Below, one piece after another: positions 53,493 to 53,812 of a stretch of DNA of 64,000 bases (the first letter of the stretch is position 1; each line of letters begins with the position of its first letter). The position numbers were made by a program, and so were the translations under genes. Source of the stretch: Escherichia coli (GTDB lineage: Bacteria > Pseudomonadota > Gammaproteobacteria > Enterobacterales > Enterobacteriaceae); assembly GCF_003334255.1 (NCBI RefSeq), contig NZ_QOWU01000006.1, one strand, 5' to 3'. Under the pieces are notes generated by a model. It saw only the letters and a program-made list of their open reading frames with translations, was not told where the DNA came from and made no database searches.

Positions 53493-53681
53493 TTATGGCA
53501 TGTTCTGGTTGTTCTGTTGTGCAGACTTCTGACTGATTTTTTCAGCGGCGCGCTCGTCAATTTTTCGCTGAAAATAATTTCTGATAACACTGTAACCGCC
53601 GCTGATCAGATACAGCGCGCAGACGGCAGTACAGAAATACAGCATGATCTGATGAATGAATAACATAATCACCTCACACAA
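53493..53681 (-). CDS. Small single-pass membrane protein (hypothetical, cargo)
   Basis: 62-aa ORF with one hydrophobic helix then charged tail; probable TTG start; my hand read of this stretch is out of register by one nucleotide with the ORF track, so coordinates are taken from the track. Confidence 0.35.
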   Translation of the reverse strand: MCEVIMLFIHQIMLYFCTAVCALYLISGGYSVIRNYFQRKIDERAAEKISQKSAQQNNQNMP

Positions 53682-53812
53682 ATGATTGACATAACGATGT
53701 CTGGCGTTTTAAAAAAAATGAATAACAATAATAAACACTCTCCATAATTCCTCTTGCGCTCCCGTCAGGTATCTTTTCCTCTCAGTCTTGCCTGCCGGGA
53801 GCCTCTTTTTTC

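Follow-up and report, generated by a model that had tools for sequence, protein, structure and literature searches.

A DUF1378 membrane-protein gene and a predicted opposite-strand small RNA gene beside a NanS-p-type esterase in a P2-like Escherichia coli prophage

We analyzed positions 53,493 to 53,812 of a 64,000-nucleotide (nt) stretch of Escherichia coli DNA (assembly GCF_003334255.1, contig NZ_QOWU01000006.1; this whole stretch is the window), where a small open reading frame (ORF) preceded by an AT-rich segment lies in a P2-like prophage. The ORF is a genuine, intact and conserved phage membrane-protein gene of the DUF1378 family. The AT-rich segment is most likely a gene for a small regulatory RNA (sRNA) on the opposite strand, as predicted from its sequence and that of its relatives. 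With the adjoining NanS-p-type sialate O-acetylesterase gene, the two form a mobile three-part cassette (esterase, antisense sRNA gene and DUF1378) that is typical of Shiga toxin (Stx)/lambdoid prophages. The locus is largely explained by known elements, namely a DUF1378 gene and an sRNA gene of the EcOnc33/Pas type transplanted into a P2-like late operon. The explanation as a whole, in which a DUF1378 lysis-accessory gene and an sRNA gene occupy opposite strands of a mobile esterase cassette, is held with slightly better than even confidence.

An intact DUF1378 gene in a mobile esterase cassette

The program-made ORF list gives the small ORF as 53493..53681 on the minus strand, encoding 62 amino acids (aa) from a TTG at 53681. 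The ATG at 53666 is the better start and yields a coding sequence of 57 aa plus stop at 53493..53666 (-), with the product MLFIHQIMLYFCTAVCALYLISGGYSVIRNYFQRKIDERAAEKISQKSAQQNNQNMP. A Shine-Dalgarno sequence, GAGGTG, was read at 53670..53675 (-), in which GAGG (53672-53675) stands 5 nt before the ATG. Exactly this 57-aa frame is annotated by RefSeq as 'DUF1378 family protein' (WP_016237822.1) in E. coli S19-651 (NZ_CP075852.1), whose chromosome is 100% identical across window positions 53400-53900 (501 bases). Exact translation of the 57-aa ORF revealed no frameshift or other frame disruption, and the worry of the first-pass annotation that its reading was one nucleotide out of register proved to be without consequence. 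Its description of a small membrane ORF with a hydrophobic helix and a charged C-terminus between the esterase and gene R is borne out by the ORF list, the RefSeq coding sequence and the hydropathy profile (Kyte-Doolittle, 19-residue window), which peaks at 1.85 at residues 3-21 and is followed by a charged tail from R29 on. The AlphaFold model of the protein is a single helix at residues 3-51 of moderate confidence (mean predicted local distance difference test score 68). Residues ~3-24 probably span the inner membrane with the very short N-terminus in the periplasm, and the basic tail would be cytoplasmic because of the positive-inside rule applied to R29, R34 and K35.

The protein matches Pfam DUF1378 (PF07125; i-E 2.7e-27, 95 bits, model positions 1-49 of 59) and phrog_494 (E 6.2e-28). 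Conservation of the ORF, which had been left to be checked, was found across 266 stretches of IMG/VR and 309 phage records, almost all of them from Stx-converting or other lambdoid E. coli phages, and the family is under purifying selection. Pairwise comparison of DUF1378 codons 1-45 gave a median ratio of nonsynonymous to synonymous substitution rates (dN/dS) of 0.18 among the 43 pairs with dS > 0.15, indicating that the frame is translated and constrained. The family is small, with 35 clusters at E <= 0.001, many of them fragments, in an exhaustive profile search of 1.84 billion cluster representatives. Searches of NCBIfam, PADLOC and PDB sequences with the protein gave zero matches. The residues that are invariant or nearly so across the family (M1, L9, F11, V15, L20, G23, G24 and R29) are all kept in the window copy. 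The copy also follows the family layout of ~50-85 aa, with an N-terminal hydrophobic transmembrane helix and then a GG(Y/W)xxIR boundary motif, and carries the IDxxAAEK stretch of the family. As in the window, DUF1378 lies directly downstream of a NanS-p esterase gene in prophage Sp6 of strain Sakai (ECs_1528) and in phage 933W (an unannotated ORF downstream of L0105). The window copy differs from the usual DUF1378 genes in that its backbone is P2-like, not lambdoid, and in that the next gene is tail gene R, not DUF826 and a holin gene. It is also chimeric. The 5' 74 nt are lambdoid-like (92%), the 3' part resembles a Mu-like phage allele (82%), and the two meet near codon 24. In its Q/N-rich C-terminal tail, the protein departs from other members.

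The late region of the P2-like prophage lies on the minus strand of the window, in the order X, a 94-aa membrane protein, lysozyme with an N-terminus like that of signal-anchor-release (SAR) proteins, a LysB-like DUF2570 protein, LysC, esterase, DUF1378, R, S, V, W and J. The NanS-p-type esterase gene (SASA and DUF6645 domains; phrog_143, E 1e-295) occupies 53813..55858 (-) and encodes 681 aa from the RefSeq start, or 688 aa in the longest ORF, which starts at 55879. It begins 10 nt past lysC. DUF1378 sits between the esterase stop codon (53813-53815) and the ATG of R (53477), and 15 nt (53478-53492) separate its stop from this ATG. The P2-like phage P88 carries no gene at the site and has just 137 nt between its last lysis gene and R. 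The proposal that the ORF has no P2 counterpart therefore holds, and the esterase and the small ORF are inserted cargo. The full 501-nt stretch at window positions 53400-53900 is present in 12 of the 5,426 complete E. coli genomes sampled, in copies that are 97.8-100% identical. No DUF1378-R junction was found among 50,697 phage genomes.

Window positions 55607..53608, comprising most of the esterase gene, the spacer and the first 23 DUF1378 codons, share 94.4% DNA identity with a lambdoid prophage in which the gene order is SASA esterase, DUF1378, DUF826, class II holin, lysozyme and spanin. The edges of this 94% identity are sharp, one ~250 nt (85-90 codons) into the esterase gene (55607) and the other at DUF1378 codon 24 (53608), indicating that both ends of the cassette were made by recombination within genes. 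A Mu-like phage carries a 57%-identical esterase gene, then DUF1378 and then DUF826, after the gin invertase gene. In Stx-converting phages, the NanS-p module lies downstream of stx, and DUF1378 and DUF826 ORFs are located between nanS-p and S (PMC10462455). The window shares the esterase family with that module, at 94% DNA identity to the lambdoid copy over 2 kb. The Stx-phage module, however, follows Q/pR' or stx, whereas that of the window is placed within a P2-type late operon after lysC. Linkage was assessed in two samples, each of the 80 best matches and so biased towards close relatives: the esterase gene is directly upstream in 77 of the 77 IMG/VR DUF1378 loci with enough sequence (L004-L083, n=80; the other 3 lie at a contig end), and DUF1378 is found within 400 nt downstream in 74 of 74 esterase loci with enough DNA. 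The esterase genes of enteropathogenic E. coli (EPEC) E2348/69 have no DUF1378.

The AT-rich spacer as a predicted sRNA gene

The segment upstream of the ORF is AT-rich, as first described. Its G+C content is 40.5% in 53682-53812 and 31.9% in 53667-53757, against ~53% in each of the esterase gene, R and the whole window. The first-pass annotation had proposed independent transcription of the ORF from this segment. This proposal is not supported by the relatives, in which no sense promoter is conserved and a promoter and a terminator lie on the opposite strand. A motif scan identified a -35 hexamer, TTGACA, at 53686..53691 (+), 19 nt from the DUF1378 ATG and at a position that is fixed in relatives. 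A -10-like hexamer, TAAAAA, follows at 53710..53715 (+), 18 nt past the -35, in a layout common to the relatives and to the PasA/PasC loci described below. RNA folding predicts a terminator hairpin at 53758..53802 (+) with 13 pairs around one internal mismatch and a 17-nt loop, followed by CTC and TTTTTT (53806-53811). The hairpin has a folding energy of -22.6 kcal/mol (z -4.75 vs shuffles), and a single nucleotide separates the end of the T-run from the complement of the esterase stop codon. The predicted antisense sRNA, placed by this conserved architecture and by the position of EcOnc33, would be ~90 nt long and span 53722..53811 (+), its 5' end being estimated to within a few nt.

Comparison with related loci supports this assignment. 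The pattern TTGACW-N18-TAAAA occurs once in the 64-kb window, at 53686-53714 (+), where 0.09 occurrences are expected by chance, and once in each related locus, always antisense. Among the 82 related loci with enough sequence for a census, TTGAC[AT] is at the fixed antisense position in all 82 and the layout is the same throughout; the -10-like hexamer is TAAAAA in 60 and TAGAAA in 16. An alignment of 17 divergent esterase-DUF1378 spacer variants shows almost no conservation except for three elements that are meaningful only antisense to the ORFs: TTGAC[AT] at a distance of 18-26 nt from the ATG of DUF1378, an A-rich hexamer (mostly TAAAAN) exactly 18 nt on, and a GC-rich hairpin with T6-8 beside the esterase stop. 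The stem sequences vary (GCTCCCG.CAGG.., CCGCCAGCG.., CCGCCGG.., CCCGCCAG..), and a hairpin with a T-run is kept in every variant. A near-identical copy of the window sRNA is present in a canonical lambdoid context (locus L002). We infer that the sRNA is transcribed in this prophage. Over its whole length, its sequence is complementary to the late mRNA between the esterase and DUF1378 genes.

EcOnc33 was reported from prophage Sp6 of strain Sakai as a minus-strand peak of RNA cross-linked to Hfq (crosslinking and analysis of cDNA, CRAC), with a predicted intrinsic terminator and a ~71-nt Northern band (Tree et al., 2014; PMC4104026, Table S2). We mapped its Northern probe to NC_002695.2 1557239-1557273, where it detects the opposite strand. 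This site is the spacer that runs from the end of esterase gene ECs_1527 (1557185) to the start of DUF1378 gene ECs_1528 (1557333), and its promoter reads TTGACA-N18-TAAAAA, as in the window. PasA (85 nt) and PasC (79 nt) of EPEC E2348/69 are Hfq-dependent, Northern-validated RNAs (PMC8550237, Table S6; Zhu, Shabalina and Storz, 2026 preprint). In E2348/69 they run convergently to an esterase gene, with the terminator of PasC abutting the esterase stop. The promoter layout predicts lengths of 84 nt for PasA and 77 nt for PasC, compared with the reported 85 and 79, and puts the start site of each no more than 1 nt from its published 5' end. The window sRNA gene resembles all three in being convergent with the esterase gene, in the terminator abutting the esterase stop codon, in the promoter (TTGACA and, after an 18-nt spacer, an A-rich -10-like hexamer) and in an RNA length of 75-100 nt, and it shares with EcOnc33 the position between an esterase gene and a DUF1378 gene. 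It differs from all three in the sequence of the RNA body and of the terminator stem. EcOnc33, PasA and PasC were published from lambdoid prophages as expressed and Hfq-bound RNAs, whereas the copy in the P2-like prophage is a prediction. From these comparisons, the window sRNA gene is classed as a putative divergent unit of the EcOnc33/Pas type, recognized by position and architecture, not by sequence. The PasA locus itself (L084; E2348/69, NC_011601.1 743264-743540) contains a tandem pair of sRNA units, both with TTGACA-N18 and a separate terminator. The reported minor form of PasA (236 nt) extends to the second of these terminators, the one abutting the esterase stop codon.

Several observations speak against an sRNA gene of this kind. 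The -10-like hexamer TAAAAA lacks the usual final T, and a generic promoter/terminator scan was blank on both strands at the site, because it accepts only a -10 hexamer ending in T and hairpin loops of 3-8 nt, rules that exclude this hexamer and a hairpin with a 17-nt loop. Two covariance models were constructed. The first, based on an RNAalifold structure, kept only 3 pairs. The second (R2) used a hand-set 8-pair stem and 18 sRNA units, with the window and its near-twin L002 left out. The site was not recovered when the whole window was searched with the second model. With the filters off, in a search of 601 nt, its best match was 53719-53810 (+), which is weak (8.5 bits, E 0.085). A blastn search with PasA and PasC gave no match to the sRNA of the window or of L002, nor to any locus outside E2348/69. 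An earlier Northern analysis also suggested that PasA's 5' end arises from processing, not from initiation (Zhu, Shabalina and Storz, 2026 preprint).

An Rfam scan of 53300-54000 at E <= 10 returned only chance snoRNA-like matches. Identity of the spacer element with AsxR or AgvB was considered and rejected, as Rfam places STnc100/AsxR upstream of the esterase gene, not in the esterase-DUF1378 spacer, in lambdoid relatives. Elsewhere in the window, the sRNA covariance model gave a weak match (13.6 bits) to an intergenic segment at 40403-40460 (-), where UUUCUCCAUUGG is followed by a CCCGC/GCGGG hairpin and a U-run. This segment could be an ordinary terminator or another small RNA.

On the sense strand, the spacer contains an upstream ORF of 23 codons (ATGGAG...; 53674..53745, minus strand), read from the sequence, with a GAGGA Shine-Dalgarno and a TGA stop that falls within the Shine-Dalgarno of DUF1378. 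The antisense sRNA covers this ORF, including its ribosome-binding site and start. The length of the upstream ORF varies from 23 codons in the window to 11 in L002, where the T-run is one T shorter, and 14 in L006. As its length is not conserved, the upstream ORF is probably non-functional and was not treated as a gene.

Lysis context and competing explanations

On the sense strand, the generic scan found neither a promoter nor a terminator on either side of DUF1378, and a custom scan of the 17 spacer variants found no conserved sense-strand promoter. DUF1378 therefore sits in the late operon, and we infer that it is expressed only late. A candidate sense promoter in the last esterase codons, TTGACA-N17-AATAAC, was rejected. 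Its recurrence is explained by coding conservation, and the window has TTGAGT instead of TTGACA, with 8/12 matches. The corresponding window sequence, TTGAGT-N17-AATAAC at 53840-53875 (-), lies in the esterase end. Many relatives have a perfect TTGACA there (up to 10/12 matches); transcription from it would begin close to the esterase stop, and coding probably accounts for the conservation.

Distant members of the family are found in the lysis regions of unrelated phages. In L094, the order is Q, holin, lysozyme, DUF7940, an i-spanin-like protein, DUF1378 (which overlaps the spanin stop), DUF826 and terminase. L088 has muramidase, DUF7940, an Rz-like protein and DUF1378; L092 has a class II holin, a SAR-type lysozyme and DUF1378; L089 has lysozyme, DUF1378 and a DUF2570 spanin; and L098, a Stenotrophomonas phage, has a SAR-type lysozyme, a spanin-like protein and DUF1378. 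L091 is also among the distant DUF1378 loci in a lysis context. L088, L089, L092, L094 and L098 have neither an esterase gene nor room for the sRNA. The holin gene of lambdoid E. coli prophages comes directly after DUF1378 and DUF826. Because distant members are embedded in lysis cassettes, DUF1378 most likely encodes a late-expressed accessory inner-membrane lysis protein, as far as guilt by association can indicate. We favor a history in which an ancestor of the E. coli prophages acquired the esterase and sRNA genes by insertion just upstream of DUF1378. Accessory lysis membrane proteins include antiholins and the 'releasin' gp25 of phage Mu. Like them, the DUF1378 protein is small and predicted to be single-pass in the inner membrane, and its gene lies within or beside lysis cassettes; no sequence relationship to them is known. 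A DUF826 gene comes next after DUF1378 in five loci, one of them the esterase-free L094 (4319-4525), and DUF826 is thus a recurring partner; its coordinates in other loci are 7440-7712 in L002, 5229-5474 in L003 and 3554-3823 in L086.

In the proposed mechanism, DUF1378 would have no promoter of its own. Its translation would start, through its own Shine-Dalgarno, on the P2 late-operon transcript, which would run from the head and lysis genes through the esterase gene and DUF1378 to R and S. The protein would thus be made late in lytic growth and would act at the inner membrane, where it may modulate the holin/endolysin step. On the opposite strand, a sigma-70-type promoter (TTGACA-N18-TAAAAA) would produce an RNA of ~90 nt ending at the intrinsic terminator that abuts the esterase stop codon. 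This RNA would be of the same kind as the Hfq-binding EcOnc33, PasA and PasC, RNAs that lysogens express and that make contacts in trans with host mRNAs.

A number of points count against the lysis assignment. The window copy lacks the frequent partner DUF826, and it is co-oriented with the lysis genes at a distance of 2 kb, with the esterase gene separating it from lysC. The chimeric ORF, with its lambdoid-type 5' part and Mu-like-type 3' part, could have no activity here. An esterase-related role fits the tight linkage to the esterase gene in E. coli prophages equally well. The literature names DUF1378 only in passing, and we found no experiment on any DUF1378 protein.

These points lead to the rival explanations. 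That the ORF is an inert hitchhiker, brought in with the esterase and sRNA genes by recombination, idle in the P2-like phage and still open since the transfer was recent, is unlikely. The chimeric structure with a breakpoint at about codon 24 and the missing DUF826 fit this idea, as do the rarity of the arrangement (12 of the 5,426 genomes, with the DUF1378-R junction in no phage record) and the near identity of the P2-like copies, which at 97.8-100% are too alike to gauge selection within the lineage. However, the chimera keeps all of M1, L9, L20, G23, G24 and R29, which are invariant across the family, the Shine-Dalgarno is good and the frame intact, the protein variants of the lineage differ only conservatively, and the family as a whole is under purifying selection. 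A second alternative makes DUF1378 an accessory factor of the esterase, which tethers, releases or times NanS-p at the membrane. The linkage of the two genes, which in the E. coli prophages sampled is complete whichever gene is taken as the starting point, and their joint movement across lambdoid, P2-like and Mu-like backbones are in its favor. The linkage figures nevertheless come from 80 best matches and are biased to close relatives, the distant DUF1378 genes have no esterase gene nearby, and the E2348/69 esterases lack DUF1378. We regard this accessory role as quite unlikely.

The remaining alternatives concern the spacer. Type I toxin-antitoxin pairs include divergent sRNAs (tisB/istR-1 and zorO/orzO) and a coupled leader ORF (hok/mok/sok). 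By analogy, DUF1378 could be a toxin repressed by the divergent sRNA, possibly via the upstream ORF as in hok/mok/sok. The window shares with such systems a small hydrophobic protein beside a divergent sRNA, which starts ~55 nt from the DUF1378 ATG, and an upstream ORF whose ribosome-binding site and start are covered by the sRNA and whose stop lies in the DUF1378 Shine-Dalgarno. Moreover, within the E. coli clade DUF1378 never occurs without the sRNA unit, though the sRNA does occur without DUF1378. The sRNA, however, extends in the direction away from the DUF1378 ORF and has no overlap with it or with its ribosome-binding site, and both the length and the stop position of the upstream ORF vary. 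Cognate duplex energies average -16.0 against -15.1 for non-cognate pairs, with z vs shuffles of ~0; direct control of DUF1378 translation by the sRNA was dropped, given that no cognate pairing signal was detected at the translation-initiation region. Known type I systems also differ in having a toxin promoter, of which the 17-variant scan found no conserved trace, and in distant members DUF1378 adjoins or overlaps a spanin or endolysin gene and no sRNA unit is present. A toxin-antitoxin pair is accordingly very unlikely.

Even less likely is an independent moron, with a sense promoter in the AT-rich segment and a lysogen-expressed protein acting in superinfection exclusion or as a membrane effector. 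DUF1378 is AT-rich cargo without a P2 counterpart, and small single-pass exclusion proteins generally resemble it in appearance. A moron in the sense of Juhala et al. in 2000 reportedly has its own promoter, gene and terminator. The DUF1378 gene lacks this structure, having no conserved sense promoter and no sense terminators bracketing it, whereas the sRNA gene on the opposite strand has it. The conserved spacer elements also face the opposite strand, and PADLOC gave no match. Among the roles suggested by the first-pass annotation, lysis modulator is the best fit, given the distant homologues in lysis cassettes, whereas exclusion and effector functions are unsupported because they need expression in the lysogen, of which there is no sign.

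Within the preferred explanation, a lysis-accessory gene beside an sRNA gene, a functional pairing of the two is doubtful and quite improbable. In such a pair, abundant Hfq-bound sRNA in the lysogen would bind read-through late RNA across the esterase-DUF1378 spacer and would silence the membrane-active DUF1378 protein and, in this phage, R and S until late transcription outruns the sRNA; the sRNA would cover the ribosome-binding site of the upstream ORF and lead to cleavage or block coupled translation. If true, it would be a phage-borne safety catch built like hok/mok/sok and acquired with the esterase gene by different phage types.

Broader relevance and accompanying features

The value added by this analysis lies in the reinterpretation of the AT-rich segment and in a testable lysis hypothesis for the unstudied DUF1378. 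Hundreds of Stx-converting phages carry a member of the family immediately upstream of the lysis genes, by whose action Shiga toxin and NanS-p are released. The occurrence of the family in the lysis cassettes of unrelated phages suggests the hypothesis that it affects lysis timing and hence the release of toxin and esterase. The predicted sRNA gene would extend the esterase-linked prophage sRNAs, previously lambdoid, to P2-like and Mu-like backbones, and the common promoter/terminator layout finds divergent sRNA copies where sequence similarity fails. For annotation, an AT-rich, promoter-like spacer before a small ORF may be a gene on the opposite strand.

Two accompanying features were also observed. 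The prophage lysozyme, encoded at 56409-56951 (-), starts with MAGPKRYAVAAIVALGISLAPG..., a weakly hydrophobic, Gly/Ala-rich N-terminus that is typical of SAR endolysins, and similar endolysin N-termini occur in several phages that carry DUF1378. Upstream of the esterase gene, the lambdoid loci L002, L005, L006, L013, L022, L024, L025, L038, L046, L047 and L065 contain 1-4 tandem STnc100 matches, with AsxR also present in L065; the P2-like copy has neither, because its esterase gene starts 10 nt after lysC.

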